The notes beneath the pieces were generated by a model. It was not told the DNA's origin. It was given only the letters and a program-made list of their open reading frames with translations, and searched no databases. This document shows positions 11,652-57,619 of a stretch of DNA of 64,000 bases, piece by piece. Each line of letters starts with the position of its first letter. Within the stretch, counting starts at the first letter, position 1. The position numbers and the translations under genes were made by a program. The DNA comes from a virus, in the IMG/VR virus record IMGVR_UViG_3300029489_000102, one strand, 5' to 3'.

Positions 11652-12920
11652 ATGAAAGCAACTGCTGAACTGAAAATGCTGCCGGTGACCGTACTCAAGC
11701 CGGCTGCATACAATCCCCGAAAAAAGCTGAAGCCGGGGGACAAGGAGTACGAGAAGATTAAGAACTCCATTGAGGAGTTTGGTTTTGCCGATCCGCTGGT
11801 GGTCAATGCCGATATGACGATCATCGGCGGCCATCAACGCCTGACCGTTGCGATGGCACTGGGTTATACCGAAGTGCCTTGTGCGGTGGTGGACATCGAC
11901 AAGACCCGAGAAAAAGCTCTGAACATTGCGCTCAACAAGATCACCGGCTCGTGGGATGATTCCCTGCTGGCTGACCTGCTGAAGGATATCGAGAACTCCA
12001 ACTTCGACCTGGGCAAGACGGGCTTTGAGCCGCCTGAGATCGAGACGCTGTTCAACAAGGTCCACGACAAGGACATCAAGGAAGATGACTTCGATGTGGA
12101 ATCTGAGATGAAGCAGCCGACCTTCTCGCAGGCAGGTGACCTTTGGATGCTGGGCCGGCACCGTGTTCTGTGCGGTGATTCTACGAAGGCGGAGTGCTAC
12201 GATACCCTGATGGACGGCGTGAAGGCCAACCTTGTGCTTTCCGATCCCCCGTACAATGTAGATGTGGAAGAAACGGCCGGTAAGATCATGAACGACAACA
12301 TGGGCGACTCGGAATTCTACGAGTTCCTGCTGGCGGCGTTTAAACAGATGCACGGTCATCTGGCGGATGACGGTTCCATCTACATCTTCCACGCCGATAC
12401 GGAAGGTCTGAATTTCCGAAAGGCGTTCAAGGATGCGGGATTCTATCTGTCCGGGTGCTGTATCTGGAAAAAGAATGCTCTGGTGCTGGGTCGCAGTCCC
12501 TATCAGTGGCAGCATGAACCCTGCCTCTATGGGTGGAAACTGAAGGGCAAGCACCAGTGGTACTCCGACCGTAAGCAGACCACCATCTGGGAGTACGACC
12601 GTCCCAAAGCAAACAAAGACCACCCGACCATGAAGCCCATCGGCCTGATGAGCTATCCCATCCGCAACTCTACCATGACCAACGGCATCGTCCTGGACCC
12701 CTTCCTCGGCAGCGGCTCGACCCTGATCGCCTGTGAGGAGACTGACCGGGCGTGCCGGGGCATTGAGCTTGACCCCAAATTCGTGGATGTTATCGTCAAG
12801 CGCTATATCGAGCACAGCGAAGGTCGCTACGAGGATGTGTATGTCCTCCGTGGCGGTCAAAAGTTGAAGTTCGATGAGGTGGCATCTTTCCAGCCGGAAC
12901 AGGAGGGCGCAGATGACTGA
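11652..12920 (+). CDS. ParB-like nuclease domain fused to N6-adenine/N4-cytosine DNA methyltransferase (beta class, PF01555-like)
   Basis: N-terminal ParB/Srx motif (GGHQRL), motif IV SDPPYN, C-terminal FLGSGST AdoMet-binding motif. Confidence 0.85.
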   Translation: MKATAELKMLPVTVLKPAAYNPRKKLKPGDKEYEKIKNSIEEFGFADPLVVNADMTIIGGHQRLTVAMALGYTEVPCAVVDIDKTREKALNIALNKITGSWDDSLLADLLKDIENSNFDLGKTGFEPPEIETLFNKVHDKDIKEDDFDVESEMKQPTFSQAGDLWMLGRHRVLCGDSTKAECYDTLMDGVKANLVLSDPPYNVDVEETAGKIMNDNMGDSEFYEFLLAAFKQMHGHLADDGSIYIFHADTEGLNFRKAFKDAGFYLSGCCIWKKNALVLGRSPYQWQHEPCLYGWKLKGKHQWYSDRKQTTIWEYDRPKANKDHPTMKPIGLMSYPIRNSTMTNGIVLDPFLGSGSTLIACEETDRACRGIELDPKFVDVIVKRYIEHSEGRYEDVYVLRGGQKLKFDEVASFQPEQEGADD

Positions 12921-13683
12921 ACCCAGATGTGTCCTGTTCCATGACAACTTCCAGAACTTCAAGTCCTACAACATTCCCAAGGCACAGCTGGTGATCGCCG
13001 ACATCCCGTATAACATCGGGTCGGACTTCTACGCCAGCCGCCCGGATTGGTATGTGGACGGAGATAACCGGAACGGAGAGAGCGATAAGGCCCGGAAAGC
13101 GGCATTCAATACCGACTTCACTTTCAATATCGCAGAATACTTCCATTTCTGTAACCGGCTGCTGAAGAAAGAACCCATGAAAGGGGAAAAAGGCGCACCG
13201 TGTATGATCGTGTTCTGTGCGTTCCAGCAGATCCCCAAGGTCATCACGGAAGCTGAGAAGTACGGGTTCAAAAATTATATCCCGCTGACCTTCTGTAAGA
13301 ACTACAGCCCGCAGGTCTTGAAAGCCAACATGAAGATCGTGGGTGCAACGGAGTATGCGCTGGTCCTCTACCGGGGCAAGCTCCCGAAGTTCAACAACGT
13401 CGGTAAGGACGGCAAGTCCCACATGATCTTCAATTGGTTTGACTGGAAACGAGATGGCAAGGACTATCCAAAGATCCATCCGTCCCAGAAACCGGTGTCC
13501 GTGCTGAAACGCCTGATCGAGATCTTTACCGATCCCGGAGATGTGGTCATCGACCCTTGCGCCGGCAGCGGAGCAACGCTCCGGGCAGCCAGAGAACTGG
13601 GACGTGACAGCTACGGATTTGAAGTGTCCAGGGATTTCTACCTGAAAGCCAAAGAGCAGATGGTCGGAGAGGAGGCTGTATGA
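12913..13683 (+). CDS. DNA methyltransferase (N6A/N4C type, DIPYN motif)
   Basis: ATG overlaps the previous stop. ADIPYN motif IV and C-terminal DPCAGSGAT motif I (beta-class order). Confidence 0.85.
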   Translation: MTEPRCVLFHDNFQNFKSYNIPKAQLVIADIPYNIGSDFYASRPDWYVDGDNRNGESDKARKAAFNTDFTFNIAEYFHFCNRLLKKEPMKGEKGAPCMIVFCAFQQIPKVITEAEKYGFKNYIPLTFCKNYSPQVLKANMKIVGATEYALVLYRGKLPKFNNVGKDGKSHMIFNWFDWKRDGKDYPKIHPSQKPVSVLKRLIEIFTDPGDVVIDPCAGSGATLRAARELGRDSYGFEVSRDFYLKAKEQMVGEEAV

Positions 13684-16151
13684 GCACCGAATCGAATATC
13701 CAACTGACCCTCGGCAGCCTCTTTGATGGCTCCGGGGGTTTTCCTTTGGGCGGTTTACTGACAGGCTGCATCACGCCGCTGTGGAGCAGCGAAGTGGAGC
13801 CCTTCGCCATCCGGGTCACGACCAAGCGTCTGCCCGAGGTGAAGCACTACGGGGATGTGTCCGCCATCAACGGCGCAGACTTGCCGCCGGTGGACATCAT
13901 CACCTTTGGCAGTCCTTGCCAGGACATGTCCATTGCCGGTAAACGAGACGGTCTGGATGGTTCACGGTCCAGCCTGTTCTATGAAGCGATTCGCATCGTG
14001 AAGGAAATGAGGTGTAAGACCAATGGAGCAAAACCAAGATTTATCGTATGGGAGAATGTGCCGGGGGCCTTCTCCTCAAACAAAGGGCAGGACTTCAAAG
14101 CAGTCCTCGAAGCCGTCATCGGTGTTAAGGAACCGTCCGCCGAGGTGCCTGCGCCTGACAAAAAAGGCTGGCCCGATGCTGATTACTATCTGGGAGACGG
14201 ATGGAGCGTCGCGTATCGAGTTCTTGACGCTCAATGGTGGGGCGTACCCCAAAGGAGAAAACGCATCTACCTTGTCGCAGATTTTGCAGACCACGGTGCC
14301 CCAAAAGTATTATTTGAGTCCGAAGGCGTGTCTGGGTATTCTGCGGAGGGCTTCCGTGCGTGGCAAAGAACTGCCTCCGGTGCTGAAAGCGGCGCTGGAA
14401 CGGCAGGCTGCTGCGGAAGACTCTGCCTGAACGACCAGGGCGGGGAGAGGATGGATGTGACCGAGGAGGTGACCGGAACACTCCGGGCACAAGAGCATGG
14501 GCATCAGCCGTGCGTCCTTGAAGCGGCCGGTTTCTGCACAGAACATTCCGCCAACGCGAGGAGCATCGGATATGAGGCAGAACGTTCTCCCACCCTCCGG
14601 GCCGGAGTCGTGCCTGCTGCCATCGCTCTGGAAAATCACCCGACTGATTGCCGGGTGAAGATCGCAAAGGACGGCAAGGTACAGACGCTGACCAGTCGGT
14701 GCGGTACGGGCGGTGGCAATGTCCCGTTGGTCATGGATGGCGTGGAAAACAGCGGGGAAGAGGTGGAAAACTCACCTGCAGTCACACTGAAAATTCGTTC
14801 TGGATGCGAGGGTGGCGGCAAAGGTGCTATCTGGCAGGAAGAAAAATCTGCTACCCTCGGCTGCAACAACGACCAGACCGTGTTCATCCCTTTTATGAAA
14901 GGAACGAGACCGCACTCACAGAGTGAAGCACCGACATGGAAACAGGGTGAAGTCGCAAATACACTCAATACGTTTGATGTCGGAGAACAGCGATGCAATG
15001 AACTGGCGATTAAAGCCTACGGTATCTGCTCCAAGGCCAGCCATTCCATGATGTCGGATAACCCCCATAGCGGTTTCTATGAAGCCAGTACCTCTCGGAC
15101 GTTGGATCGCAGCGGCGGTGACCCGACCTGTAACCAGGGTGGGCTGTGTATCTGTGAACCTGTTGTCTGCGTGGATCAGGGTGGAGGCAAGTCGAACTGT
15201 ACGGTGGACGAACAGGTGGCACCGCCTCTGGCCTGCACCCATGGCGGGGCTCCGGCAGTAGCCTTTACCCAGAACCAGCGGGATGAAGTCCGGGATCTGG
15301 GCGAGACGGCGGGTTCGCTGTCTGCACAGCCGGGAATGAAACAGCAGACCTTTGTGGCGCAGCCGGATGACGTGACGGCATTCCATGTGAATCAGCGCAA
15401 TGAGCTGATCGACCTGCATGGAAAGTCCGGTGCGCTCATGGCGACCCGAAGCGACCAGATGCAGACCTTCGTGCTGCAGGGCAACATAATCGGCCGCAAA
15501 GACGAGAATGGTCCGCAAGGTGACGGCATCAACGAAGATGTCTGCTTTACGCTGGATGCCACTGACCGTCACGCAGTCTGCGCACCGGAAGATGTCTACG
15601 CCATGACCACCGGCTCCTTCATGAGGGTGGAGGAGAATGTATCTCCCACCCTTATGGCCCGGGACTTTAAAGACCCTGCCACCATTGCACCGGTGCCACA
15701 CCTGAACGATGGCGTGTCGGGAACGGTGGCGACCGGGGCGCATCCCAGCGGATTCAATGGTCAGGACGCTTTCAATGACCGACTGGTCATCGATAACCCG
15801 GAGGCACAGCCGATCCCCGTGTCCTATACGGTTCGCCGTCTGACCCCGACCGAGTGCGCTCGGCTGCAAGGCTTTCCCGATTGGTGGTGCCGTGACCTCG
15901 AAACTGAGAATCCCACGGAAGAAGAAATCTCTTTCTGGCAGGATGTGTTTGAAACGCACCGCAGACTTGTGACTCAGGCCAAGAAGCCGAAGACGGAAAA
16001 GCAGATCCGAAAATGGCTGGCAGACCCGTATTCGGATGCCGCAGAGTATAAGCTCTGGGGCAATGGTGTCGCACTGCCGTGTGTCTTTTTTGTACTGTCC
16101 GGCATCGTCTGGGTAGCCGGATCGCCTGAGAATGGGAGTGAATCGGAGTGA
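13680..16151 (+). CDS. DNA (cytosine-5)-methyltransferase, large (823 aa, extended target-recognition region; possibly multispecific)
   Basis: Motif I FDGSGG, motif IV GSPCQDMSIAG, motif VI ENVPG, C-terminal RRLTPTECARLQGFPDWW. Long variable region between motifs VIII and IX. Confidence 0.9.
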   Translation: MSTESNIQLTLGSLFDGSGGFPLGGLLTGCITPLWSSEVEPFAIRVTTKRLPEVKHYGDVSAINGADLPPVDIITFGSPCQDMSIAGKRDGLDGSRSSLFYEAIRIVKEMRCKTNGAKPRFIVWENVPGAFSSNKGQDFKAVLEAVIGVKEPSAEVPAPDKKGWPDADYYLGDGWSVAYRVLDAQWWGVPQRRKRIYLVADFADHGAPKVLFESEGVSGYSAEGFRAWQRTASGAESGAGTAGCCGRLCLNDQGGERMDVTEEVTGTLRAQEHGHQPCVLEAAGFCTEHSANARSIGYEAERSPTLRAGVVPAAIALENHPTDCRVKIAKDGKVQTLTSRCGTGGGNVPLVMDGVENSGEEVENSPAVTLKIRSGCEGGGKGAIWQEEKSATLGCNNDQTVFIPFMKGTRPHSQSEAPTWKQGEVANTLNTFDVGEQRCNELAIKAYGICSKASHSMMSDNPHSGFYEASTSRTLDRSGGDPTCNQGGLCICEPVVCVDQGGGKSNCTVDEQVAPPLACTHGGAPAVAFTQNQRDEVRDLGETAGSLSAQPGMKQQTFVAQPDDVTAFHVNQRNELIDLHGKSGALMATRSDQMQTFVLQGNIIGRKDENGPQGDGINEDVCFTLDATDRHAVCAPEDVYAMTTGSFMRVEENVSPTLMARDFKDPATIAPVPHLNDGVSGTVATGAHPSGFNGQDAFNDRLVIDNPEAQPIPVSYTVRRLTPTECARLQGFPDWWCRDLETENPTEEEISFWQDVFETHRRLVTQAKKPKTEKQIRKWLADPYSDAAEYKLWGNGVALPCVFFVLSGIVWVAGSPENGSESE

Positions 16152-16957
16152 GCATCACCCTGACTGCTTTTCTTGAGCAGCTCGAAACCATCTGTGCCAC
16201 GAAACCGGACTATCGCATCGGCGGCAGCGGTACGGATGGAACCTGTGACTGCATTGGTCTTATCATCGGCGCAGTCCGCAGGGCTGGTGGAGGCTGGAAT
16301 GGCATCCACGGCAGTAACTACGCAGCCCGGAAACAGATGACGGACTTTGCAGAGATCAAATCCGCTGATCTGTTTGTGGGTGAGATCGTCTACAAAGCCC
16401 GAAAACCGGGAGACAGCAGCTACAATCTGCCGGACCGCTACAAGGCGAATGGCGGCGATTTGCTGGACTACTATCATGTAGGCGTCGTCACCAAGGTGCG
16501 TCCGCTGGAGATCACCCACTGTTCCACTACGGTGAACGGTAACAGCATCCACCGGGATGCAACGCTCGGCAAGTGGAAATACGGTGGCCGGCTGAAGGGC
16601 ATCGACTATGGAACGACTCAGGAGGAAACAGAGATGAGCGAAGTCAAGATGCAGGAGACCCAAAACAAGGCAACCGTTACGGGCGGAAGATTGAGTCTGC
16701 GCCAAGCTCCGTCCAAGACCGCAGACCGGCTGGCATGGATTCCCAATGGTACCCGGCTGGATGTGACCGGGCAAGGAGACGGCTGGTGTGCTGTAACCTA
16801 CGACACCATTCCCGGCTACGTCATGGAACGCTACCTGATCCTTGACGGAGAAACCGAGGAAAAGCCCAAGACGGATGCCGAGAGACTCGAAGCACTGGAA
16901 AACCAGGCGGCAGAGTTTGAGCGTCGTATCGCTGTGCTGGAGGGCGGAGCTGGCTGA
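16148..16957 (+). CDS. NlpC/P60-like peptidase with C-terminal SH3b domain and coiled-coil tail
   Basis: GTG overlaps the methylase stop. Cys (DCIGLI) and His (YHVGVV, ITHCST) spacing typical of NlpC/P60. SH3b-like GGRLSLRQAPS...GWCAVTYD. Confidence 0.5.
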   Translation: MSITLTAFLEQLETICATKPDYRIGGSGTDGTCDCIGLIIGAVRRAGGGWNGIHGSNYAARKQMTDFAEIKSADLFVGEIVYKARKPGDSSYNLPDRYKANGGDLLDYYHVGVVTKVRPLEITHCSTTVNGNSIHRDATLGKWKYGGRLKGIDYGTTQEETEMSEVKMQETQNKATVTGGRLSLRQAPSKTADRLAWIPNGTRLDVTGQGDGWCAVTYDTIPGYVMERYLILDGETEEKPKTDAERLEALENQAAEFERRIAVLEGGAG

Positions 16958-17026: not shown

Positions 17027-17160
17027 ATGATCTTGCACAGTCGTGTTTTGCACGAATCGTGTAAAAGGTCGAATATGAAGAATGTCGAGAAATGGCCTTG
17101 CTATTTCATCGATTCAGAGCGATATATGTGCTACCGAAAACAAAGAAAGGGGCACAAAGC
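17027..17160 (+). promoter_or_regulatory. conserved promoter/leader element, copy h (degenerate; ATGATC box 17027, -35 TTGCTA 17098-17103, -10 ATATAT 17122-17127)
   Basis: Member of a 9-copy family sharing upstream box, GGCCTTGCTAT, -10 region and transcribed leader GTGCTACCGAAA. Confidence 0.5.
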
Positions 17161-17161
17161 C

Positions 17162-18313
17162 ATGAAAAAGTACGCACTGAATATTGATGACCGCAAGGTT
17201 CTGGTAAGCCGCCTGATGGAGTTGACCGGGCTTCATTCCCGGTACACTTTCATGCCGCGCTGCGCTTACATCGTCGGCAGCTTCACCGTAGAAAAGGAGG
17301 GAACGCTTGTGATCGAAGACAGCGCTGCGCCGGAGATCATCCGGACGCTGCTGGACGAGGGCATCATCCGTGAGGAAGGTGCGGAAACCCCGGGGACTCC
17401 GGAAACGGAAGCCACCTGTGGGGAGGCCACGGAATCGGAGTGTGAAGAGTCAGATGAGACTGTGGACGGCACCGAAGATACCCAGCCCACCGTGGAACCG
17501 GGCGCAACTGCCGAGGAATCCCCGGAAGCTCAGGAACCGATGGACGTAGATGAGCCGATGGACACTGTGAATGACACCGATGCGGATGAGGCACCTGCTC
17601 CGACCGAACAGCCGACCTTGCAGGATGTGGATGAGCTGACCATCAGCCTGCCGATGTCCGGGCATACCGCCCAGAGCCTGCGGAATTTCCTGAACCTCAT
17701 GTACAGCCGAGGCCCTCTGCTGAACAAAGCGATGGGTACGAACTTCACGGTGTCGCAGGGACTTCTGGACGCACTGGAACAGGCAACGCCCCATACGATG
17801 AGCGAGATGCTGGATGAGCTGGAAGAATACCGCCTGGGTGCCGGTACCACCGGCATGACCGGCATCCAGATCACGGCGGAGAAGATCAGCCTGGCTTTTG
17901 CCGGTCCGCTGACGCAGGAGAAGGTCCGTGCCTACACGGAACTCTGCGCCGCCATGAACCGGATGGCAATCGCTCAGAAGCGGATCCAGGCAAAGACCGT
18001 CAACGATGCCAATGAGAAGTACGCACTCCGCATCTGGCTGATCCGACTGGGTCTGAATGGAGATGAACACAAGACCATCCGCAAACTCCTGATGCAGAAC
18101 CTTTCCGGTCATGCGGCATTCCGCACCGAGGAAGATGCCGAAAAGTTCCGGGTCAAGGAAAAGGCAAAGCGGGATGCGCTGAAAGCCGCAAAACAGGCGG
18201 CACACGGCGGCGTTTCTGCCGCCGAGGAAACGGCCGAAGCGGCAGCGGAAGCCCCCACACAGCCCGACTGTGGGGCAGACGGCGCACCCCAGGCGCAGGA
18301 GACGGGAGCGTAA
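17162..18313 (+). CDS. hypothetical protein with long acidic low-complexity insert; C-terminal ~80 aa homologous to the C-terminus of the downstream amidoligase-like protein
   Basis: Shared motif NEKYALRIWLIRLGLNGDEHKTIRKLLMQNLSGHAAFR versus NEKYAMRCWMLRLGFIGDEFKTAREILLRNMEGNASWR. D/E/T/P-rich region about aa 95-190. Confidence 0.5.
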   Translation: MKKYALNIDDRKVLVSRLMELTGLHSRYTFMPRCAYIVGSFTVEKEGTLVIEDSAAPEIIRTLLDEGIIREEGAETPGTPETEATCGEATESECEESDETVDGTEDTQPTVEPGATAEESPEAQEPMDVDEPMDTVNDTDADEAPAPTEQPTLQDVDELTISLPMSGHTAQSLRNFLNLMYSRGPLLNKAMGTNFTVSQGLLDALEQATPHTMSEMLDELEEYRLGAGTTGMTGIQITAEKISLAFAGPLTQEKVRAYTELCAAMNRMAIAQKRIQAKTVNDANEKYALRIWLIRLGLNGDEHKTIRKLLMQNLSGHAAFRTEEDAEKFRVKEKAKRDALKAAKQAAHGGVSAAEETAEAAAEAPTQPDCGADGAPQAQETGA

Positions 18314-18437
18314 GCTCCTGACCCCTTATGTGGGCCGCCGGATAAGAGAGAGCTTCTTCCATTGTACCGATATTAACTCTGAAAATGTACAGTATCAAGT
18401 GTGTTTTTTGCCATAATGTACACGATCTTTGTCCTGA

Positions 18438-18544
18438 ATGATCGGTGATTATTTGACCCTTTATGGCCTTGCTATCCTCCCCACATGACGGTAATATGCA
18501 CATACCGCAAGGGGAACAGAACAAGACAAAAGGAGATAAACACC
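18438..18544 (+). promoter_or_regulatory. conserved promoter/leader element, copy a (ATGATCGGTGA 18438; -35 TTGCTA 18469-18474; -10 TAATAT 18492-18497)
   Basis: Same architecture as the other copies. An inverted copy of the upstream box (TGTACACGATC) lies at 18417-18427. Confidence 0.6.
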
Positions 18545-19480
18545 ATGAACGATAAGACCAGAGAGCAGATCGAAGCCATGAAGATGCAGACCATCGGGGT
18601 CGAGGTTGAGATGAACAACATCACCCGCGAGAAAGCCGCCAGAAAGGTTGCCGAGTTCTTCGGGACGACCGCATGGTACGCAGCCAGCGAGTACGGGTAC
18701 ATGAGCTGGGCTTGCAAGGACCAGCAGGGCAGGGTTTGGAAATTCCAGCGAGACATCAGCATCCACGGACCGGAAGCTGAAAAGTGCGAGATGGTGACCC
18801 CCATCCTTACCTACGAGGACATCGAGACCTTGCAGGCAATCATCCGACTGCTCCGCAAGGCTGGCGCAAAGTCCAGCCCCAGTCGGGGATGCGGCGTTCA
18901 CATCCACATCGGCAAGGGCAACCACACCCCCAAGACCCTGCGGAATCTGGTCAACATCATGGCTGCCCACGAAGAACAGATCGGCAGAGCGATTCGCATC
19001 GATGCAGGCAGAACCGGACAGTATTGCCGAGTGGTCGACCCCCGATTCCTTGACCAGCTGAACAAGAGAAAGCCGACGACCATGACTGAGCTTGCCGACA
19101 TCTGGTACGCCAGCAACCACGCAAACTACGGCAGAACGGCACATTACAATGAAAGCCGATACCATATGCTGAACCTCCACGCCACCTTCACCAAGGGCAC
19201 GATTGAATTCCGGCTTTTCCAGTTTGCCGACCCCAGCGACGGCAAGCAGAACGGACTTCACGCCGGTGAGCTGAAAGCCTACATCCAGCTTTGCCTCGCA
19301 ATGAGCCAGCTTGCCAAGATGGTGAAGACCGCAAGCCCCAAGCCCCAGCAGACCGACAACGAGAAATATGCAATGCGGTGCTGGATGCTTCGGCTGGGCT
19401 TCATCGGGGACGAGTTCAAAACAGCACGGGAGATCCTTCTGCGGAATATGGAGGGCAACGCAAGCTGGCGCAACGCATAA
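18545..19480 (+). CDS. putative amidoligase (Amidoligase_2 / GS-like carboxylate-amine ligase family)
   Basis: IGVEVEM N-terminal strand and GCGVHIHIG motif are reminiscent of the phage amidoligase family. Genomic association with GGCT-like genes. Assignment from recalled family features, not a search. Confidence 0.55.
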   Translation: MNDKTREQIEAMKMQTIGVEVEMNNITREKAARKVAEFFGTTAWYAASEYGYMSWACKDQQGRVWKFQRDISIHGPEAEKCEMVTPILTYEDIETLQAIIRLLRKAGAKSSPSRGCGVHIHIGKGNHTPKTLRNLVNIMAAHEEQIGRAIRIDAGRTGQYCRVVDPRFLDQLNKRKPTTMTELADIWYASNHANYGRTAHYNESRYHMLNLHATFTKGTIEFRLFQFADPSDGKQNGLHAGELKAYIQLCLAMSQLAKMVKTASPKPQQTDNEKYAMRCWMLRLGFIGDEFKTAREILLRNMEGNASWRNA

Positions 19481-19504
19481 GCGCCGACTTGCACGGGCAC
19501 CTAT

Positions 19505-19526
19505 CGGGCGGGCAACCGCCCTTTAG
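19505..19526 (+). terminator. hairpin GGGCGGGCAACCGCCC + TTTA
   Basis: GC stem directly after the amidoligase-like gene. Confidence 0.45.
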
Positions 19527-19550
19527 GCGGTAGAAGGAGGGCGATACGCC

Positions 19551-19781
19551 ATGAAAAATGAAACCAGAGAAACCGCACCCGGCAGAACGTTCCGGGTGGT
19601 CATCACCGAGACCCTCAAACGGGTGGTCGAGGTCAACGAATCCGAGATCAAGGAACCCACGATGGATGAGGCCGTCCAGGCGGTCAGCGACTGGTGGCAC
19701 AACGGACAGATCATTTTGGAAGCCGAGGACTTTGACGGCGTGGACTTTTCCGCAGCGGAAGGCGGTGAGGTCGGTGATTGA
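19551..19781 (+). CDS. small acidic hypothetical protein
   Basis: 76-aa ORF with GGAGG RBS. Confidence 0.4.
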   Translation: MKNETRETAPGRTFRVVITETLKRVVEVNESEIKEPTMDEAVQAVSDWWHNGQIILEAEDFDGVDFSAAEGGEVGD

Positions 19782-20310
19782 TCGCTTCCGGTTCGACAAG
19801 GGCGGGATCAGCAGAAAGCCGTCCCGGTACTATCTTGCATACGGCAGCAACCTTGACATGGAACGGATGGAACACAGATGCCCCTATGCGGTGCCGGTCG
19901 GTGTTACCGAGATCTACGGATACCGACTCCTGTTCAAGAAAAGTAAGACCGGGTGCTACGCCACCATCGAGCAGGACGCCAATGAAAGCGTTCCAGCTGT
20001 GGTCTGGTTGCTTTCCGAGTTTGATGAACTGCTGCTGGACCGGTACGAAGGCTGCCCTCGGTACTATTACAAGAAGCAGTTCCAGCTTCCCGTCTGGAAT
20101 CTGGATGGGCATCGGATGAAGAAGTTGAAAACCTGCATGGCATACATCCTGCACGAAGAACGGCAGCTCGGCTGCCCCAGCCATGAGTACTTCGACCTGC
20201 TGGCAGACGGGTATACGGGGTGGGGATTCCCGACAGATACATTGCACAGCGGGCTGTCTTCCAGCATCGGAAAGGCGGCAGCGGTGGAGTTCCTCAAAGA
20301 AATCGACTGA
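19765..20310 (+). CDS. gamma-glutamyl cyclotransferase-like (GGCT/AIG2 family) protein 1
   Basis: YYLAYGSNLDMERMEHRCP motif. GTG start overlapping the upstream small ORF; the first ~70 codons of ORF 19558 are an alternate-frame artefact. Confidence 0.65.
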   Translation: MRSVIDRFRFDKGGISRKPSRYYLAYGSNLDMERMEHRCPYAVPVGVTEIYGYRLLFKKSKTGCYATIEQDANESVPAVVWLLSEFDELLLDRYEGCPRYYYKKQFQLPVWNLDGHRMKKLKTCMAYILHEERQLGCPSHEYFDLLADGYTGWGFPTDTLHSGLSSSIGKAAAVEFLKEID

Positions 20311-20350
20311 GTACAATTTTGACGATTCTGTGAGGAAATCATTGTGCAGG

Positions 20351-20442
20351 ATATGATGCACATTGGCCTTGCTATTCGGGCAAAACAGAGGCATATATAG
20401 CATACCGCCAGACAACAGCGGAAACGAAAGGAGCAAGCAACT
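20351..20442 (+). promoter_or_regulatory. conserved promoter/leader element, copy i (degenerate; -35 TTGCTA 20369-20374; -10 ATATAT about 20393-20399)
   Basis: GGCCTTGCTATT ... GCATATATAGCATACCGCC matches the family consensus. Confidence 0.5.
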
Positions 20443-20925
20443 ATGAACGAAAAGAAGTATTACATCGCATACGGCAGCAACCTATCGGTGGAGCAGATGG
20501 CACAGCGGTGCCCGGATGCCCGCATTGTGGGTCAGGCTGTTCTGGAAGACTGGGAGCTGGCCTTCCACGGCTGTGCGACCATCCTGCCGAACAAGGGAAA
20601 GAACACGCCGGTTCTGGTGTGGGAGATCTCCGCTGGCGATGAGAAGAACCTCGACATCTACGAAGGTTATCCGAACTTCTATCGCAAGGAAAACATGACG
20701 GTCGAGGTGGTGAGCAAAGATGCAGAGCCCATGACCGTCACCGCAATGGTCTACATCATGGAAGACACCTACGGCGAGCGGATGCCGAGCCGGTACTACT
20801 ATCGGGTCCTTCACGATGGCTATAAGGCATTTCATTTCCCGATGCACATTCTGGAAGGTGCACTGAAGAAGTGTACCAGCAACAAGAAACTCGCGGAGAA
20901 TATGATCAAGGAGGTGCAGGGATGA
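20443..20925 (+). CDS. gamma-glutamyl cyclotransferase-like (GGCT/AIG2 family) protein 2
   Basis: YYIAYGSNLSVEQMAQRCP, LEDWELAF, VLVWEI, LDIYEGYP motifs. Confidence 0.75.
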   Translation: MNEKKYYIAYGSNLSVEQMAQRCPDARIVGQAVLEDWELAFHGCATILPNKGKNTPVLVWEISAGDEKNLDIYEGYPNFYRKENMTVEVVSKDAEPMTVTAMVYIMEDTYGERMPSRYYYRVLHDGYKAFHFPMHILEGALKKCTSNKKLAENMIKEVQG

Positions 20926-21380
20926 GATTTCCGGATAGAAAGACCGTGGAATACCTGCGGACACAGTTTCCGGTCGGCTGCCGTGTGGTGCTGGACCGAA
21001 TGGACGATGCTCAGGCACCGGCCTTGGGTACGCAGGGGACCTGCCGGGGCGTGGACGATGCAGGCAACGTGATGGTTTCGTGGGATACGGGCGGCAGCCT
21101 GAACGTTGCCTACGGCGCGGACAGTTGCCACCGTGTGGCGTCCGAGGTCGAGGTAAAGAAATCGCTCGACCACCTCGGTAAGACGCGACACGCGGGCCCA
21201 CGTTGCCCACGGTGCGGCGCTGAGCCGGACTGTTACGACCACCAGCAGCAAGCCCTCAGCCGCTACGCAGAGATCATGGTGTGCAACGCCTGCGGAACGA
21301 TAGAGGCGATGGAAGACTTTCTTGGGCAAGCAACACCGCTGACTGACTGGGCGATCGTGAAAGCGGGGTGGGTCGAATGA
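20922..21380 (+). CDS. DUF4314-like protein with C-terminal zinc ribbon
   Basis: ATGA overlap with the previous gene. CPRCG...CNACG motif. N-terminal domain resembles DUF4314 of Firmicutes mobile elements (from memory). Confidence 0.45.
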   Translation: MRFPDRKTVEYLRTQFPVGCRVVLDRMDDAQAPALGTQGTCRGVDDAGNVMVSWDTGGSLNVAYGADSCHRVASEVEVKKSLDHLGKTRHAGPRCPRCGAEPDCYDHQQQALSRYAEIMVCNACGTIEAMEDFLGQATPLTDWAIVKAGWVE

Positions 21381-21748
21381 AGGTGCTTTTGATCGAGCCG
21401 ATGGAACATCCGAAGGAGATCGATATCCAGCCCACGCTGGAAGAGTACTATAAGGTGCTGGACTGCGACTGCATCACGGCAACCTACCCGTGGCCGGAAC
21501 CGGTCGCTCTGGTCACGGACGACAACGGACTGTTTACGGACAAACTGTTCAGCCGGTATATCCGGGAACTGAAACAGCCGATCCGAGGCGGCTTCTTCCT
21601 CTGTGGGTTGGGCGAGGAAGACTTCACAGACTTGCCGCCGGAACTCATGGACAAGTTCAGGAAACGGTTCTGGAATCCGGAACTCTTCGTTCGCACCGCA
21701 TCGGGACTCGCGGCCATCCAAACCAGCGACGGCACACAGCCCGAATAA
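21377..21748 (+). CDS. DUF3846 domain protein
   Basis: MKVLLIEPMEHPKEIDI...LEEYYKVLDCDCITATYPWPEPVALVTDDNGLF matches the DUF3846 pattern (MKvl.iEP.k.P...I...LE.....VGG.I....P..D.vaLicNEEGKL). ATGA overlap. Confidence 0.6.
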   Translation: MKVLLIEPMEHPKEIDIQPTLEEYYKVLDCDCITATYPWPEPVALVTDDNGLFTDKLFSRYIRELKQPIRGGFFLCGLGEEDFTDLPPELMDKFRKRFWNPELFVRTASGLAAIQTSDGTQPE

Positions 21749-21756
21749 AGAAAACG

Positions 21757-21790
21757 GCCCCTTCTGCCTAGGCAGGAGGGGTTGGCTTGT
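21757..21790. terminator. 11-bp stem hairpin CCCCTTCTGCC-TA-GGCAGGAGGGG
   Basis: Strong GC hairpin after DUF3846. May terminate both convergent transcripts. Confidence 0.5.
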
Positions 21791-21945
21791 GGCTGGTGGG
21801 GGCTTCGGATCATCGAGAACCCTTTCCCAGTTTACTGTATATTAGCTCTGGTTTGCAAGAATAGCAAGCCGGGAAAGAGCAGGATCTTCCACGATCTTTA
21901 GGCGGCAGAACTGTGTATATGGTCAACGGAAAACGGGGACAACGA

Positions 21946-21974
21946 GGAACAGCCCCAGCCTTGCTGGGGGTTCC
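21946..21974 (-). terminator. hairpin GGAACAGCCCCAGC/GCTGGGGGTTCC downstream (minus strand) of the 21988-22236 gene
   Basis: Inverted repeat read in the sequence. Confidence 0.45.
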
Positions 21975-21987
21975 TTGGCGGATTCCC

Positions 21988-22236
21988 TTAAAGGAAATCC
22001 CGCATGCTCATGCCGACTTCGTAGAGTTGCTGCTCAAGGCTCATGTAATGCCATTCTTCTTCTTCGTCCTCTTCCTCCTCCAGTTCTTCGGGGAAAGGGT
22101 CGTGTTTCCAACCGCCCTTGCGGTATTCTTCTTCCCGGATGTCGTTGCGGTCGAAAATGTCCAGCTCGTATTCTTCTTCAAGCTCTGCAATGCGGTCCTC
22201 GATGATGCTTTCGATCTCGCTGATGGTCTTTTTCAT
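21988..22236 (-). CDS. small highly acidic protein (minus strand), hypothetical
   Basis: MKKTISEIESIIEDRIAELEEEYELD...EELEEEEDEEEEWHYMSLEQQLYE. The only convincing minus-strand gene inside the cassette region. RBS GGAGG. Confidence 0.45.
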   Translation of the reverse strand: MKKTISEIESIIEDRIAELEEEYELDIFDRNDIREEEYRKGGWKHDPFPEELEEEEDEEEEWHYMSLEQQLYEVGMSMRDFL

Positions 22237-22350
22237 GGTGGTTGCCTCCGTTTTCCGTGTGTGTTTTCCTTTCGGTGTCTGTATATTCGCTCTAAAATAC
22301 ATATTTATCAAGGCCATTTATCGATATAGATCCACCAAAGATATGGGCAG

Positions 22351-22442
22351 ATGATCGTCGATAATATGACGTTTTATGGCCTTGCTATTATGCCGAAACG
22401 ACGGTAATATGCACATACCGAAACGGAAAGGAAGGAAAAAAC
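22351..22442 (+). promoter_or_regulatory. conserved promoter/leader element, copy b (ATGATCGTCGA 22351; -35 TTGCTA 22383-22388; -10 TAATAT 22405-22410)
   Basis: Family consensus. Confidence 0.6.
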
Positions 22443-22649
22443 ATGGAACGCTACACCTACGAAATCACCTTCACCCGGCTGGACGGCCAGCCCGACGAGA
22501 CTCAGCAGTACACCGACGAGGGGTTTGCCAGAGAATGCTTCCGACTTTTCGATGAGCCGGACAGCGCCGAGCTGTACAGCCGCATCCGCCTGACCCGCCA
22601 CGACTGGGAGACCGGCACGGACGAGGTTCTGGAGACCTTAGAATTCTGA
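22443..22649 (+). CDS. small hypothetical protein (68 aa)
   Basis: ORF following the conserved leader and RBS. Confidence 0.45.
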   Translation: MERYTYEITFTRLDGQPDETQQYTDEGFARECFRLFDEPDSAELYSRIRLTRHDWETGTDEVLETLEF

Positions 22650-22664
22650 AAGGGGAGAACGAAC

Positions 22665-23219
22665 ATGAAAATGGAACTGGACAAGAAGCTGGACACAATC
22701 CGGCTCAATGTATTGGCCGCCAATTTTGGCGACCTTGCCACTCGCCGTCAGATGATTCAGGAGTTCGGGGATTACCCGGATGCCCTGTGGGGTGTCAATG
22801 AAAATGGGGAGAAGGTGATGCTCAGCATCCAGAAAAACGGCATCACGGAGCGTGTGTTCCAGTCGAACCGGTGGGTTCGGGTCAACGAATACGACGCCGA
22901 CGGCTGTGAGGCCGGCGAGACCTACGAAGGGCGCTGGGCAGAGTGCCCGAAACCCACGGCGACGGATACGGATGAGGAACTGGAGCTTTCGGATGCCCAG
23001 AGTGCCCGCAACGATGAAATCTACAACGCTGCGTATGAATTCTGCAAGGTCATGGCGGAGGATGACCGCCTCGAGTGGAACATGGAGATTCTCGGAGAAC
23101 TGGCAGACCTTGCCGCCGAGCTCCTGACCCGGCACGGCAGCCGTGTGCGCTACCCTGCGGTGGTCACCGAACCGGACGGAAGGCAGTATATCGAGGAATA
23201 CCACGGCGGCATAAAGTGA
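22665..23219 (+). CDS. hypothetical protein (184 aa)
   Basis: ORF with GGGGAG RBS. Confidence 0.5.
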   Translation: MKMELDKKLDTIRLNVLAANFGDLATRRQMIQEFGDYPDALWGVNENGEKVMLSIQKNGITERVFQSNRWVRVNEYDADGCEAGETYEGRWAECPKPTATDTDEELELSDAQSARNDEIYNAAYEFCKVMAEDDRLEWNMEILGELADLAAELLTRHGSRVRYPAVVTEPDGRQYIEEYHGGIK

Positions 23220-23244
23220 CACATTTTCCGGAGTGAAGAGCCAG

Positions 23245-23325
23245 ATGATCGTGTACATTAGCCGCTTGCTATCAGCCCTGAGTGACGGTAATATACAGTC
23301 ACAAAAACGAAGGGAGATAAACACC
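23245..23325 (+). promoter_or_regulatory. conserved promoter/leader element, copy c (ATGATCGTGTACA 23245; -35 TTGCTA 23266-23271; -10 TAATAT 23289-23294)
   Basis: Family consensus with leader ACAGTCACAAAAACGAAGGGAGA. Confidence 0.65.
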
Positions 23326-23586
23326 ATGACCTATACGAACATCCGACTTTTCACTGCCAACGGCATTCCGGAGGCAGTCAGCAACCTTTGGTACGGTACC
23401 GACTGCTCGGTGGTCGAGATCCAAGACGCCATTGAAGATGCCAAGAACGCAGCAGACCTTCTGCGGCGCATCCAGAAGATGAAACTTCTGAGGAAGGTAG
23501 CCCTCGACCGGGAAACCGAACAGAAGGTGCGGTTCAAGACCACCGATTGCTGGGGCAATATAAGCTACCTCGAAATCCGCAAATAA
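23326..23586 (+). CDS. small hypothetical protein (86 aa)
   Basis: ATG after GGGAGA RBS of the conserved leader. Confidence 0.5.
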   Translation: MTYTNIRLFTANGIPEAVSNLWYGTDCSVVEIQDAIEDAKNAADLLRRIQKMKLLRKVALDRETEQKVRFKTTDCWGNISYLEIRK

Positions 23587-23680
23587 ACCGGATGGATAGG
23601 GGCAAGGGGCTGGGAAACCGGCCCTTTGCTCGTGTCCATCCAATGTCATACCGCCCGAATGTACACAAATCTAGGGGCGA

Positions 23681-23790
23681 ATGATCGTGTATCATAGCCG
23701 CTTGATAGTGTGCGAAAGTGACGGTAATATGTGCATACCGAAAGGGAAAACCCCACGGAAAACACAAAAAACACGCTGGAGGATACAAAA
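23681..23790 (+). promoter_or_regulatory. conserved promoter/leader element, copy d (ATGATCGTGTA 23681; -35 TTGATA 23702-23707; -10 TAATAT 23725-23730; extended leader CCCCACGGAAAACA...GGAGGA)
   Basis: Family consensus. Shares the leader insert with copies f and g. Confidence 0.65.
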
Positions 23791-24240
23791 ATGACGAAGA
23801 ATGAAAACCGCATCAATAAGCTTTTCGAGGAACTGGTTCCCACGAGCGGCAAGGCGGATAGCCTCGCCGGAGAACTGGTCAGAGCCACCGCACGGATCGG
23901 GTACCGATTCTTCAACGACGGCGACATGGTCAACCAGGGCTACGGCAAAGAAACCTGCAACCCCGCGGCCCGGTTCCTGATCGCCAAGGGCAACGCAGAG
24001 ATCAGCAGCCTGACCGTAGCCCTTTGGGAGATCTTCAGCGAGGATGCCTACGAAAAGGTTCTGGATACCCTTGAGGGTGCGGTTGCCGACTACATCAAGA
24101 AGAACCCCGACCTTCGCAGCCAGCCCACCAAGGATATGTGGGATTACCGCGATATGGCGGAAGACTGGGACGACAGCTGCGATGAGGAAGAGGACTACGA
24201 CGACTGCGAAGATGACTACGATGAGGAAGAAGACTACTGA
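23791..24240 (+). CDS. hypothetical protein with poly-acidic C-terminal tail (DSCDEEEDYDDCEDDYDEEEDY)
   Basis: 149-aa ORF with GGAGGA RBS. Confidence 0.5.
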   Translation: MTKNENRINKLFEELVPTSGKADSLAGELVRATARIGYRFFNDGDMVNQGYGKETCNPAARFLIAKGNAEISSLTVALWEIFSEDAYEKVLDTLEGAVADYIKKNPDLRSQPTKDMWDYRDMAEDWDDSCDEEEDYDDCEDDYDEEEDY

Positions 24241-24252
24241 GCAGAAAACGGC

Positions 24253-24284
24253 GGGGGCTTGCCTGAAAGGGCAGCCCCTTTTCC
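24253..24284 (+). terminator. hairpin GGGGCTTGCC-TGAAA-GGGCAGCCCC + TTTTCC
   Basis: GC stem plus T-run after the acidic-tail gene. Confidence 0.5.
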
Positions 24285-24323
24285 TGTGCCTGGACTCTCA
24301 AATATACACCGATCCTGGCGTGA

Positions 24324-24406
24324 ATGATCGTGTAATCTGCGGCCTTGCTATCTGCGGGACGTGACGGTAATATACAGTCACAAAAACGAAAGCGAGGTAC
24401 ATAGAC
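24324..24406 (+). promoter_or_regulatory. conserved promoter/leader element, copy e (ATGATCGTGTA 24324; -35 TTGCTA 24345-24350; -10 TAATAT 24368-24373)
   Basis: Family consensus. Confidence 0.65.
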
Positions 24407-24601
24407 ATGAAAAAGCAGACCCTGACCAGGAAGCAGCAGAAAGCCCTGCTGGACATCGCAAAGCGCCTGATGGTGGAGGTGGAAAACCGAGGCGACCTTG
24501 AAGCGCGCGGCTGCGACAGCGAGGATTTCATCGAGGTTCCCGTCTGGGGCATCCAGAAAGCCATGGAGGAAGCCTACCTTCTGGGCAAGGCGGAGAAGTA
24601 A
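24407..24601 (+). CDS. small hypothetical protein (64 aa)
   Basis: ORF after the conserved leader. Confidence 0.45.
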   Translation: MKKQTLTRKQQKALLDIAKRLMVEVENRGDLEARGCDSEDFIEVPVWGIQKAMEEAYLLGKAEK

Positions 24602-24721
24602 GCCCGACACAGCCCCCACAAAGGGGGGCGCAGATGCAAGCCAACAAACTCCCCCAACCAAACCGCACAAGCCCCACACAGGGGCTGTGTGGCGAGGTGG
24701 TGGGGCAACGGAGGAATGAGT

Positions 24722-24940
24722 ATGAACGACGAAAGAGTCATGGACCTTATCGTGGACATCTACAACAATATGAATGACGAGGATAAGGCTGGCTTCACGC
24801 TGGAAGCTGCCAAGGAGATGGTCAAGGACCAGATTGAAATTGATTTTTCCCAAGGTCGTTGGCCGCTGGAATACGACCCCCAGCTCTTTTATGAAGTAAT
24901 CCGGGAATTCATTGAACAGGATGCCGAGGACGGAGAGTGA
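24722..24940 (+). CDS. small acidic hypothetical protein (~72 aa)
   Basis: ATG 7 nt after GGAGGA. Upstream part of ORF 24689 is probably not translated. Preceded by hairpin CCACACAGGGGCTGTGTGG (24674-24692). Confidence 0.4.
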   Translation: MNDERVMDLIVDIYNNMNDEDKAGFTLEAAKEMVKDQIEIDFSQGRWPLEYDPQLFYEVIREFIEQDAEDGE

Positions 24941-24968
24941 TGTACATTCTGCCCGGTATTCCGGGCGG

Positions 24969-25073
24969 ATGATCGTGCAGCATAGCCGCTTGCTATCCTC
25001 CCCACATGACGGTAATATGTGCATACCGAAAGGGGAAGACCCTACGGAATGAAAAAACACGGAGGATTTCACC
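24969..25073 (+). promoter_or_regulatory. conserved promoter/leader element, copy f (ATGATCGTG 24969; -35 TTGCTA 24990-24995; -10 TAATAT 25013-25018; extended leader)
   Basis: Family consensus. Confidence 0.65.
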
Positions 25074-25358
25074 ATGAAGAAGCATCTGAACAACTTCCCG
25101 GAACACAGCATCAGCATCGAGAGCTACTACGACCTGCTCAGTCCCTGCAACGACAGCATCCTGCAGTTTGGCGACCGGGTTCTGGTTGCCAAAACGAACT
25201 GGAAGGGCGGCGTGGAGGCTGCGGTTTACGGATTCGCCGAGGACCCCAAGGAAGGGCTTTCATCGATCGAGTGCCGACTGGAACTGCTGAAGATTTCGGA
25301 TGAGGTCTTCTCGGATGCCGGACACGCCATCGAATGGTGCATCCGGAACGCACACTGA
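25074..25358 (+). CDS. hypothetical protein (94 aa)
   Basis: ORF after the conserved leader with GGAGGA RBS. Confidence 0.5.
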   Translation: MKKHLNNFPEHSISIESYYDLLSPCNDSILQFGDRVLVAKTNWKGGVEAAVYGFAEDPKEGLSSIECRLELLKISDEVFSDAGHAIEWCIRNAH

Positions 25359-25452
25359 GATATGGGCGGGGGCTCCCTGCGGGGGGCTTTTGCTCGTTGC
25401 GGCAGATCTTCCGTGCGCAGGATATACACATATCCGACAAGACTGTGGGCGA

Positions 25453-25561
25453 ATGATCGTGTATCATAGCCGCTTGATATACTTCCCCAGTGACGGTAAT
25501 ATACAGTCACACCGAAGGGGAGAAGCCCCACGGAAAACAAAGCATACGGAGGATACAGACC
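25453..25561 (+). promoter_or_regulatory. conserved promoter/leader element, copy g (ATGATCGTGTA 25453; -35 TTGATA 25474-25479; -10 TAATAT 25497-25502; extended leader)
   Basis: Family consensus. Confidence 0.65.
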
Positions 25562-33949: not shown

Positions 33950-34008
33950 TAAACCGAGGCAGGGCTTCGGCTCTGCTTTCTACATTATTGTATAAGGAGA
34001 TTTTCAAT

Positions 34009-34842
34009 ATGAAAAAGCATCGTGTATTTTCCCTGTTCACTGTCATCTTCGTGGCCTTCCTGCTGTTCCAGTCGGTGACCATCGTGCCAACCGGCTACAC
34101 GGGCGTGAAGACCAGCTTCGGCCAGATTCAGGAGGCCACCATCCAGAGCGGCAAGCTCAACTTCACCATTCCGTTTGTCCAGAGCATCCATACCGTGTCC
34201 AACAAGCAGCAGGACAAGCACATCGAGGCACAGATCTGGGGCGAAGCCTCCGACAAGACTCCTGTGTATGCCGCAGATGTAATCGTGACCTATCAGGTGC
34301 TCCCGGAAAAGAGTGCATGGCTGTATGCCAATGTATCCGACACCAAGAATCTGGTCGGTGACGAGTTGGTGGCATCTGCCATCAAGTCCGCCATGGCCGA
34401 GCTTGGCCCCAATGAGGTCACCAACCGCACCAAGATCGAGCCGCTGGCACAGCAGAAGCTGGCAGAGTCCCTGAACCAGAAGTATGGCGAGGGTGCTGTG
34501 TTCATCAATAAGGTGGTCATCAACAACATGGATTTTGAAGAGGCGTATAACACTGCCATCCAGCAGAAGTCCATTGCCCAGCAAAACGCCGACAAGCAGA
34601 AGATCGAGAACGAAGCCGCCATTGCCAAGGCTGAGGCCGACAAGCAAGTGGCGATCACCAATGCCGAGGCGGAGGCACAGAAGACCTCCATTGCCGCAGA
34701 TGCTCAGGCTGAAGCCAACCGCAAGATTGCAGAAAGCCTGTCTGATACCCTGATCGAGTACCAGAAGATTCAGAAGTGGGATGGCAAGCTGCCCACCGTC
34801 AGCGGCAGCAATGCACTGGTCAGCATCGACCCGGCAGAGTAA
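34009..34842 (+). CDS. SPFH/band-7 (prohibitin/stomatin-like) membrane-anchored protein
   Basis: N-terminal TM segment (VFSLFTVIFVAFLLF), then TIVPTGYTGVKTSFGQI...LNFTIPFVQSIHTVS (SPFH core) and an Ala/Gln/Glu-rich coiled-coil C-terminus. Confidence 0.7.
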   Translation: MKKHRVFSLFTVIFVAFLLFQSVTIVPTGYTGVKTSFGQIQEATIQSGKLNFTIPFVQSIHTVSNKQQDKHIEAQIWGEASDKTPVYAADVIVTYQVLPEKSAWLYANVSDTKNLVGDELVASAIKSAMAELGPNEVTNRTKIEPLAQQKLAESLNQKYGEGAVFINKVVINNMDFEEAYNTAIQQKSIAQQNADKQKIENEAAIAKAEADKQVAITNAEAEAQKTSIAADAQAEANRKIAESLSDTLIEYQKIQKWDGKLPTVSGSNALVSIDPAE

Positions 34843-57607: not shown

Positions 57608-57619
57608 GGAGAAAAGTAC

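Follow-up and report, generated by a model that had tools for sequence, protein, structure and literature searches.

A candidate gamma-glutamyl attach-and-remove cassette with a degenerate ligase paralogue in a gut Clostridia prophage

Introduction

A mobile-element system that joins an amidoligase to a cyclotransferase was reportedly predicted by computation in 2009 (by Iyer, Abhiman, Burroughs and Aravind), and the Pfam entry for the ligase family presumably notes its neighbourhood with Aig2-type cyclotransferases in Firmicutes. A cassette of this kind occupies positions 17162 to 20925 of IMG/VR record IMGVR_UViG_3300029489_000102, a stretch of 64,000 nucleotides, here called the window; this is a temperate prophage of the siphovirus type, related to Candidatus (Ca.) Heliusvirales and carried by a Clostridia bacterium of the human gut. 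Five plus-strand genes fill the region from 17.1 to 21.0 kb, encoding a degenerate ligase paralogue termed ORF-A (for open reading frame), the amidoligase, a small DpnD/PcfM-like protein and cyclotransferases 1 and 2. The cassette is read here, with a probability of roughly 0.5, as a gamma-glutamyl “attach and remove” module on mobile elements of Firmicutes. A useful new point is that the gene upstream of the ligase appears to be a conserved pseudo-enzyme partner.

When compared with the Amidoligase_2 (PF12224, phrog_2443) and AIG2/GGCT cyclotransferase (phrog_2520) genes of Firmicutes elements, the families, their adjacency and the kind of element are the same. Nothing essential differs from the predicted Amidoligase_2-GGCT system, to which the window adds a duplicated cyclotransferase and an interleaved DpnD/PcfM-like gene. 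The same trio has been tabulated in prophages of Clostridium clostridioforme LM41 as two “amidoligase” ORFs and one cyclotransferase; both ORFs carry the one name in that survey, and a description of the first as a dead paralogue was not found there (PMC11318856). As late as 2023-2024, the 2009 computational prediction is all that phage papers cite, and they leave the function to be explored (PMC10580990). The original prediction for this locus spoke of largely uncharacterised biochemistry. Literature searches indeed found no experimental characterisation of the amidoligase family or of the cassette, its substrate included, but the novelty was overstated, with both families named in PHROGs and the trio listed in the LM41 survey. 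The cassette is an ordinary member of a very common, catalogued and uncharacterised gut-phage kind, and the window contributes a clean, complete example with a duplicated cyclotransferase and nothing else unique.

Several better understood pathways offer points of comparison. The predicted chemistry is the same as that of the first half of the gamma-glutamyl cycle (GshA, YbdK and plant glutamate-cysteine ligase, together with human C7orf24), and human GGCT is the protein that both cassette cyclotransferases resemble most, with which their catalytic Glu lines up. In contrast to that cycle, no glutathione synthetase gene was seen in the cassette and the ligase is paired with an apparent pseudo-enzyme; compared with glutamate-cysteine ligases, the cassette ligase has 10-13% identity, about 310 residues as opposed to 350-500, and an extra two-helix C-terminal module. 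In the putrescine (PuuA/PuuD) and butirosin (BtrJ/BtrG) pathways, an amine is gamma-glutamylated by a ligase and later freed again by a second enzyme. BtrG, which has the cyclotransferase fold, yields 5-oxoproline; BtrJ belongs to the ATP-grasp enzymes, and PuuD is a hydrolase of the class-I amidotransferase type. Both pathways have intermediate tailoring steps, whereas the cassette holds no candidates for such steps. The Pup ligase PafA and the depupylase Dop are likewise a paralogous pair encoded together; PafA links the gamma-carboxylate of a C-terminal Glu, once activated, to lysine, and both proteins are active. In the cassette, however, one paralogue is predicted to be dead, there is no conserved Pup-like tag, and removal would fall to the cyclotransferase rather than to a ligase paralogue. 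A Klebsiella paper on fimbrial modification by an “amidoligase” was discarded as a precedent, as the enzyme there is an unrelated ATP-grasp protein.

The Amidoligase

The amidoligase gene (18545-19480, plus strand) encodes 311 residues with the hallmarks of a carboxylate-amine ligase of the glutamine-synthetase/glutamate-cysteine-ligase fold. Its assignment to the Amidoligase_2 family, proposed from motifs in the original prediction, is borne out by a hidden Markov model (HMM) search in which PF12224 matches at E 1.1e-54 and 186.3 bits, against a cut-off of 22, with residues 14-253 covering profile positions 2-244 of 245. The protein also belongs to phrog_2443, “amidoligase enzyme” (E 8e-107). 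The motifs IGVEVEM and GCGVHIHIG lie at residues 17-23 and 115-123, and all four genes originally described were found where they had been placed, with the motifs reported for them and with matches far beyond chance.

Conservation was judged from an alignment of 67 relatives of 38-98% identity, taking columns that are invariant or at least 90% conserved. All of these columns are intact in the window protein, including G18, E20, E22, R63, W65, D70, S72, E82, P86 and D92, as well as H119, H121, R156, R205, H212, E221 and R223, so that the active-site signatures G-x-E-x-E, D-x-S, H-x-H and E-x-R are all kept. An AlphaFold model of high confidence (predicted local distance difference test 95.9, predicted template modelling score 0.94) shows the glutamine-synthetase/glutamate-cysteine-ligase fold, in agreement with the suggested kinship to such ligases. 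Glu-Cys ligases are the closest likeness and score above PafA, and the nearest solved relatives of the cassette enzymes are small-molecule gamma-glutamyl enzymes; the ligases among these use ATP to activate the gamma-carboxylate of glutamate. The best reading of the amidoligase, on these likenesses, is a predicted ATP-dependent gamma-glutamyl-amine ligase.

Sequence searches found no solved structure for the amidoligase; the sole match, a plasmid recombination enzyme at 0.23, was rejected as spurious. The C-terminal two-helix module was also considered as a separate domain and had no Pfam match even at E 10. The family is large, with 4400 clusters at 50% identity (E <= 1e-3) and at least 599 matches on viral contigs, and the named bacteria with the most similar ligases are Blautia faecis and Coprococcus comes (86% each).

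A Degenerate Paralogue Upstream of the Ligase

ORF-A (17162-18313, plus strand, 383 residues) had been described as a paralogue that shares the C-terminal 80 residues of the ligase. The paralogy is real, with a BLASTP match of E 1e-21 and 30% identity across 193 residues, but it is not confined to the C-terminus: hhalign of the two families aligns ORF-A residues 4-327 with amidoligase residues 21-311 at a probability of 99.9 and E 1.6e-34. ORF-A has no Pfam match and falls within phrog_2443 (E 1.8e-38). The start at 17162 is favoured because a promoter-like element (17093-17136) falls within the longer frame that begins at ATG 17027.

The E-x-E, H-x-H and E-x-R motifs are gone from ORF-A, which has none of the catalytic residues. 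The equivalent of E22 is Ala and that of E20, placed by register extension, is Lys; H119 and H121 are replaced by Thr and Ser, and E221 and R223 by Ser and Ala. Segments corresponding to that around R156 and to HYNxSRYHxLNLH are not present. An AlphaFold2 model, built with database proteins, is confident at residues 1-72 and 156-320 and disordered at 75-152, within a linker (approximately residues 73-155) that holds 28 Asp or Glu and no Lys or Arg in 83 residues. ORF-A evolves faster than its neighbour, with 26-45% identity where the ligase holds 68-87%, and despite this divergence it keeps invariant residues of its own. To judge from these residues, ORF-A is a real and conserved pseudo-enzyme, a full-length paralogue that is predicted to be catalytically dead, and it probably serves as a non-catalytic partner of the ligase.

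The Cyclotransferases and the DpnD/PcfM-Like Protein

Two cyclotransferase genes had been said to follow the ligase. Both are present downstream, but a DpnD/PcfM-like gene (19551-19781, plus strand, 76 residues; PF14207, E 3.4e-12), an optional member of the cassette, intervenes. Cyclotransferase 1 (19774-20310, plus strand, 178 residues) begins at a GTG that overlaps the DpnD stop codon, a start placed by comparison with the ATG of relatives, and cyclotransferase 2 (20443-20925, plus strand) has 160 residues. The two are 37% identical and, as predicted, belong to the GGCT/AIG2-like families. In the HMM search PF06094 (cut-off 22.8) scores 33.7 bits (E 5.9e-8) for the first and 50.1 bits (E 5.1e-13) for the second, PF13772 (cut-off 27) scores 25.3 bits, below its cut-off, and 31.4 bits, above it, and phrog_2520, “gamma-glutamyl cyclotransferase,” matches at E 2.6e-34 and E 1e-43, respectively. 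No NCBIfam model matched any protein of the cassette.

The only solved sequence relatives of both cyclotransferases are entries for human gamma-glutamyl cyclotransferase (E 1e-5 to 2pn7 for cyclotransferase 1 and E 7e-7 for cyclotransferase 2). In both, YGSNL and the Glu of a “YEG” motif align with YGSNL and Glu98 of human GGCT; Glu74 of cyclotransferase 2 corresponds to Glu98, the residue mutated to Gln in 3cry. Across 96 non-redundant cassette homologues, YGSNL and the catalytic Glu are invariant or nearly so. The catalytic residues that the original prediction needed are thus conserved in the ligase and in both cyclotransferases, and by analogy with the human enzyme the latter would release 5-oxoproline from a gamma-glutamyl amide.

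The DpnD/PcfM-like gene accounts for 54 ORFs in the first 81 loci and, judged by architectures, occurs in 6 of the 80 later genome loci. Its C-terminal tails are variable, flexible and acidic with Gly-Gly, reading GGEVGD in the window and GEADV (the largest group), EMEGGE, KGGGGDE or KGGELCE in other loci. These tails faintly recall the carrier tails of Pup or LysW type, and the terminal residue is not conserved.

An alternative possibility is reversible protein tagging in the manner of Pup, in which Glu, or a small protein (for example the DpnD/PcfM-like one) through its acidic C-terminal tail, would be placed on lysines of a host or phage protein, with ORF-A as adaptor and the cyclotransferases as erasers. 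ORF-A does resemble a non-catalytic adaptor, and the Gly-Gly-acidic tails are flexible, one ending in GGE and several in Glu. A conserved small tag with a C-terminal Gly-Gly-Gln/Glu was nevertheless not found among the cassette proteins, the sole small candidate being the DpnD/PcfM-like protein with its variable C-terminus, which is detected in a minority of loci and ends in Asp in the window and in Val in the largest group. PafA scores below the Glu-Cys ligases, as noted above, and the nearest solved cyclotransferase acts on gamma-glutamyl amino acids rather than on protein-bound lysine. By the chemistry of its family, a cyclotransferase needs a free alpha-amine on the glutamyl group and could erase mono-glutamyl marks but not a protein tag. 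Tagging of this kind is therefore considered unlikely.

Linkage Across Mobile Elements

The pairing of the ligase with its neighbours was examined in 80 IMG/VR loci, one annotated “NatCom” phage (L001) and 80 bacterial-genome loci, the last found with a profile built from 12 sequences. Partners were counted with purpose-built HMMs when they lay within 2 kb of the ligase. Of 147 loci, 136 have a cyclotransferase downstream, and an ORF-A-like gene precedes the ligase in 125 of 143; the amidoligase and GGCT, originally proposed to work as a pair, are thus tightly coupled. The usual order is methylases, ORF-A, ligase, an optional DpnD, one or two cyclotransferases, DUF3846 and TerL. DUF4314 sits after the cyclotransferases or, often, just ahead of the ligase, and in most loci DUF4314 and DUF3846 accompany the cassette.

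Four distant loci are independent cases. An unrelated phage with a Mu-type portal and a MuF gene carries a lone pair of ligase and GGACT beside its lysogeny module (L165), and another phage has a ligase, an unknown gene, a GATase_6/7-like gene and GGACT (L082). The third, a phage locus with an unusually arranged ligase (L084), is taken up below. The fourth lies in a conjugative-element context, where a VirB4-like ATPase, a ligase fused to a cyclotransferase-fold domain (P0379, the sole protein found with both folds), an M23 peptidase and RadC occur together, with a DUF4314-DUF3846 fusion beside the amidoligase gene (L083). The adjacency of ligase and cyclotransferase is thus seen in prophage, unrelated-phage and conjugative-element contexts. 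A conjugative-plasmid leading-region context was also considered and rejected, relatives being found in just 7 of 72,556 plasmid records, none of them typed as mobilisable.

These outlying loci bear on two further alternatives. In the first, the ligase would make a modification that harms or protects, with a peptidoglycan stem peptide or an essential metabolite as possible targets, and the cyclotransferase would reverse or limit it; the outcome would be addiction, abortive infection or superinfection exclusion. Opposed enzyme pairs of mobile elements often act in this way, and the lone pair beside a lysogeny module is a self-contained cassette. A cell-wall or superinfection role for phage amidoligases is repeated in secondary literature, and the conjugative-element ligase gene is flanked by a VirB4-like ATPase and an M23 peptidase. 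The window itself has an NlpC/P60-like SH3 protein just upstream, yet a cell-wall hydrolase is a neighbour in just 8 of the first 81 loci. In the translations, read by eye only, neither a signal peptide nor a membrane segment is apparent, and the scheme gives ORF-A no role. PADLOC-DB 2.0 gave no match for any of the eight proteins submitted, and a known anti-phage defence system was set aside on this ground. A toxin-antidote or exclusion module accordingly seems improbable.

In the second alternative, a carboxylate other than glutamate would be amidated or ligated, and the cyclotransferase-fold proteins would do something other than remove gamma-glutamyl groups. The fold does not reveal the identity of the substrate, and in other phages the linked gene encodes a class-II GATase-like protein, a possible source of ammonia. 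One of these phages (L082), however, has a cyclotransferase in addition to the GATase-like gene, and the cassette cyclotransferases keep every element of the catalytic signature of their family. This alternative is held to be somewhat less probable than the two preceding ones.

Two loci at the margin of the family were also noted. A Logan contig (SRR12268554, L166) encodes a 474-residue amidoligase with a 175-residue N-terminal extension of unknown fold. Its opposite-strand neighbours encode a TIR_2 protein, a RyR-domain protein and a KptA/Tpt1-like RNA 2'-phosphotransferase, and the same strand carries, at a greater distance, a gene for an RNase T-like exonuclease; the neighbourhood resembles a conflict system and is without a cyclotransferase. 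The Corynebacterium atypicum phage-plasmid phiCATYP2070I (NZ_CP008945.1, L169) has the order TerS, MetK, DNA methylase, C5 methylase, small ORFs, TerL, portal, ClpP and capsid. Similarity between these small ORFs and the amidoligase/ORF-A module is limited to its C-terminal 70 residues, and they are probably a decayed remnant of the cassette.

DNA Methylases and the Question of Hypermodification

As originally stated, methylases and MetK lie upstream of the cassette, and this placement had made a role in DNA modification attractive. The ligase would add an amino acid to a carboxylated or aminated base, which the cyclotransferase would then trim. In favour of this, the cassette always comes after DNA methyltransferase genes, with MetK further upstream, and a paper on thymidine hypermodification reports that some such clusters contain amidoligase genes that are uncharacterised. 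The window ORFs that were scanned, however, include no gene for a dUMP/dCMP hydroxymethylase, a 5-hmdU kinase or other base kinase, aGPT-Pplase, TET/JBP or deazaguanine (deazapurine) synthesis, and ordinary methyltransferases of the N6/N4 and C5 types, with MetK, are all that they offer. Domain searches of the cassette proteins gave no nucleic-acid-binding domain, and the nearest solved relatives are small-molecule enzymes that use free amino acids. The pair also occurs in the conjugative-element context (L083) and as the lone cassette (L165). With no precursor pathway gene and with the pair found outside phages, DNA hypermodification was dropped as the leading idea; it is the weakest of the alternatives and very unlikely.

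Close to the cassette, two N6/N4 methylase genes (11652-12920 and 12874-13683, one a ParB-N fusion) and a phage MetK gene (9274-10341) precede a gene for an 823-residue C5 cytosine methylase (13680-16151). The Pfam match of the latter is in three stretches separated by a long insert that, by eye, contains internally repeated segments, and this architecture suggests a multispecific methylase.

A Proposed Attach-and-Remove Mechanism

The gamma-glutamyl module is proposed to work in three steps. First, the amidoligase would use ATP to form an acyl-phosphate from a carboxylate, most likely the gamma-carboxylate of L-glutamate, and would join it to the amine of a small molecule, peptide or protein. 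Second, ORF-A, most likely a scaffold or specificity subunit, would bind the ligase or its target, with the acidic linker as a flexible tether. Third, one or two cyclotransferases would use the free alpha-amine of the glutamyl group to attack the gamma-glutamyl amide, which by the chemistry of the family would release 5-oxoproline and regenerate the amine. Overall, either the target would be modified transiently or glutamate would be converted to 5-oxoproline at the expense of ATP.

The analysis shows the family membership, the fold, the intact catalytic motifs, the residue loss in ORF-A and a tight linkage of the genes in many elements, whereas the biological role, the complex and the substrates are inferred. 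Sequence and structure neighbours alike favour gamma-glutamyl amino-acid chemistry over DNA chemistry. With a ligase that resembles Glu-Cys ligases and cyclotransferases that resemble an amino-acid-specific human enzyme, the balance leans toward an amino-acid or peptide amine as acceptor, which is favoured but not fixed. The role is probably in host takeover or establishment of the element, and not in virion structure or DNA chemistry.

A number of observations weigh against the attach-and-remove reading. No cyclotransferase was found by HMM in 11 of the 147 loci, at least one of which (L165) has one by Pfam, and one prophage lineage dominates the sampled loci, so the linkage counts are not independent events. 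In the phage locus set aside above (L084), the ligase has 956 residues and a GATase-like neighbour and lies two genes downstream of a MuF protein. The cyclotransferase part of the fusion protein is homologous (E 2e-12), but its YGSNL has become YGIEM and its Glu is Ser; with these losses the fusion is weakened as proof of sequential catalysis and speaks instead for physical association. Identity between the amidoligase and its structural relatives is just 10-13%, and the activated carboxylate need not be glutamate, since the modelled fold likeness leaves the substrate unfixed. A ligase and a cyclotransferase acting on the same bond would form a futile cycle unless kept apart in time or space. 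Finally, the literature searched holds no biochemical result for any PF12224 protein.

A more elaborate and doubtful scheme would be a three-part reversible gamma-glutamylation, in which the dead paralogue, with its fast-evolving acidic linker and N-terminal domain, steers the ligase onto a host protein or signalling amine and the cyclotransferases take the mark off again. By this means a host function, such as defence, might be disabled by phages and conjugative elements of gut Firmicutes during their establishment. In a variant, the Gly-Gly-acidic tail of the DpnD/PcfM-like protein would supply the activated carboxylate.

Gene Groups and Promoter-Like Elements

The cassette genes fall into three groups, each behind its own copy of a promoter-like element. 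ORF-A is preceded by the copy at 17093-17136 (plus strand), which reads cTTGcTA, approximately 17 nucleotides and TATAT and is one of nine aligned copies of a repeated intergenic element. The ligase, with DpnD and cyclotransferase 1, follows a copy at 18438-18516 (plus strand; repeat families D1 and D3, alignment A5). The copy at 20364-20407 (plus strand; repeat family D16, alignment A5) precedes cyclotransferase 2 together with the DUF4314 and DUF3846 genes (20871-21748, plus strand; PF14192, E 9e-26, and PF12957, E 5e-23), frequent neighbours that are candidate members only. A separate promoter-like element stands before each group, and differential timing is therefore possible.

The nine copies of this element, each 80-100 nucleotides long, are spread over window positions 17060-25550, near 17093, 18438-18516, 20364, 22351-22429, 23245, 23675-23772, 24324, 24963-25060 and 25447-25544. 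They share an upstream GATGATCGT box, degenerate in some copies, an invariant CTTG-TA, a spacer of approximately 17 nucleotides and TAATAT/TATAT, after which CATACCGAAAGGGGAA comes ahead of the ribosome-binding site. From its letters, the element reads as one common promoter type for many small genes between the methylases and the terminase. In this promoter-rich region downstream of the cassette, two small proteins (23731-24240 and, on the minus strand, 21988-22317) have extremely acidic tails, such as DWDDSCDEEEDYDDCEDDYDEEEDY, and no family match; these could be early proteins of the DNA-mimic type.

The Host Prophage

The early genes of the prophage run in the order DUF932, SNF2 helicase, MazF-like toxin, primase/D5 helicase, MetK and ParB-N6/N4 methylase, followed by the second N6/N4 methylase, the C5 methylase, the NlpC/P60-like SH3 protein, the cassette, DUF4314 and DUF3846. 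The late genes encode TerL, portal, ClpP protease, major capsid, tape measure, tail proteins, an amidase and three serine recombinases. Among annotated phages, the PV0364xx “NatCom” gut phages, which are classified as Ca. Heliusvirales, are nearest. This group is reported to be ubiquitous in human guts and among the most prevalent gut phage lineages, and its genomes carry a C5 methylase in 67% and MetK in 58.9% of cases (PMC11283538).

Other features of the window include a gene (5689-6399) with a MazF/PemK-like toxin domain at residues 105-220 behind a 100-residue N-terminal extension; the last part of this gene overlaps the beginning of that for the primase/D5 helicase, and no clear antitoxin is annotated. 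The protein encoded at 16148-16957 in the early region, directly upstream of ORF-A, combines an N-terminal half with NlpC/P60-like Cys/His residues, seen by eye, and SH3_3; just 8 of the first 81 related loci have it, so it is counted outside the conserved cassette. A gene of the SPFH/Band 7 family (33988-34842, E 7e-17) lies inside the head-tail structural module. Two late proteins with similar coiled N-termini, one of 1654 residues with a C-terminal CotH kinase-like domain (45759-50723) and one of 872 residues with a C-terminal GDSL lipase/esterase domain (50867-53485), may be tail fibres with enzymatic tips.

After the lysis genes come three tandem genes for large serine recombinases (56585-60335). 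Past approximately 61 kb (61000-64000), the G+C content falls from about 0.53 to 0.39 and the GC skew is reversed. This low-G+C stretch is probably the prophage end with flanking host or other DNA. A minus-strand gene for an AAA_25 ATPase is located at 62028-62867.

Conclusion

The amidoligase-cyclotransferase class as a whole is a worthwhile biochemical target. Its chemistry, once solved, would give a function to thousands of annotations as “amidoligase” or “gamma-glutamyl cyclotransferase” that are now filed as auxiliary metabolic genes or guessed to be defence genes, and it could expose a new route by which mobile elements change the metabolites or proteins of their hosts.

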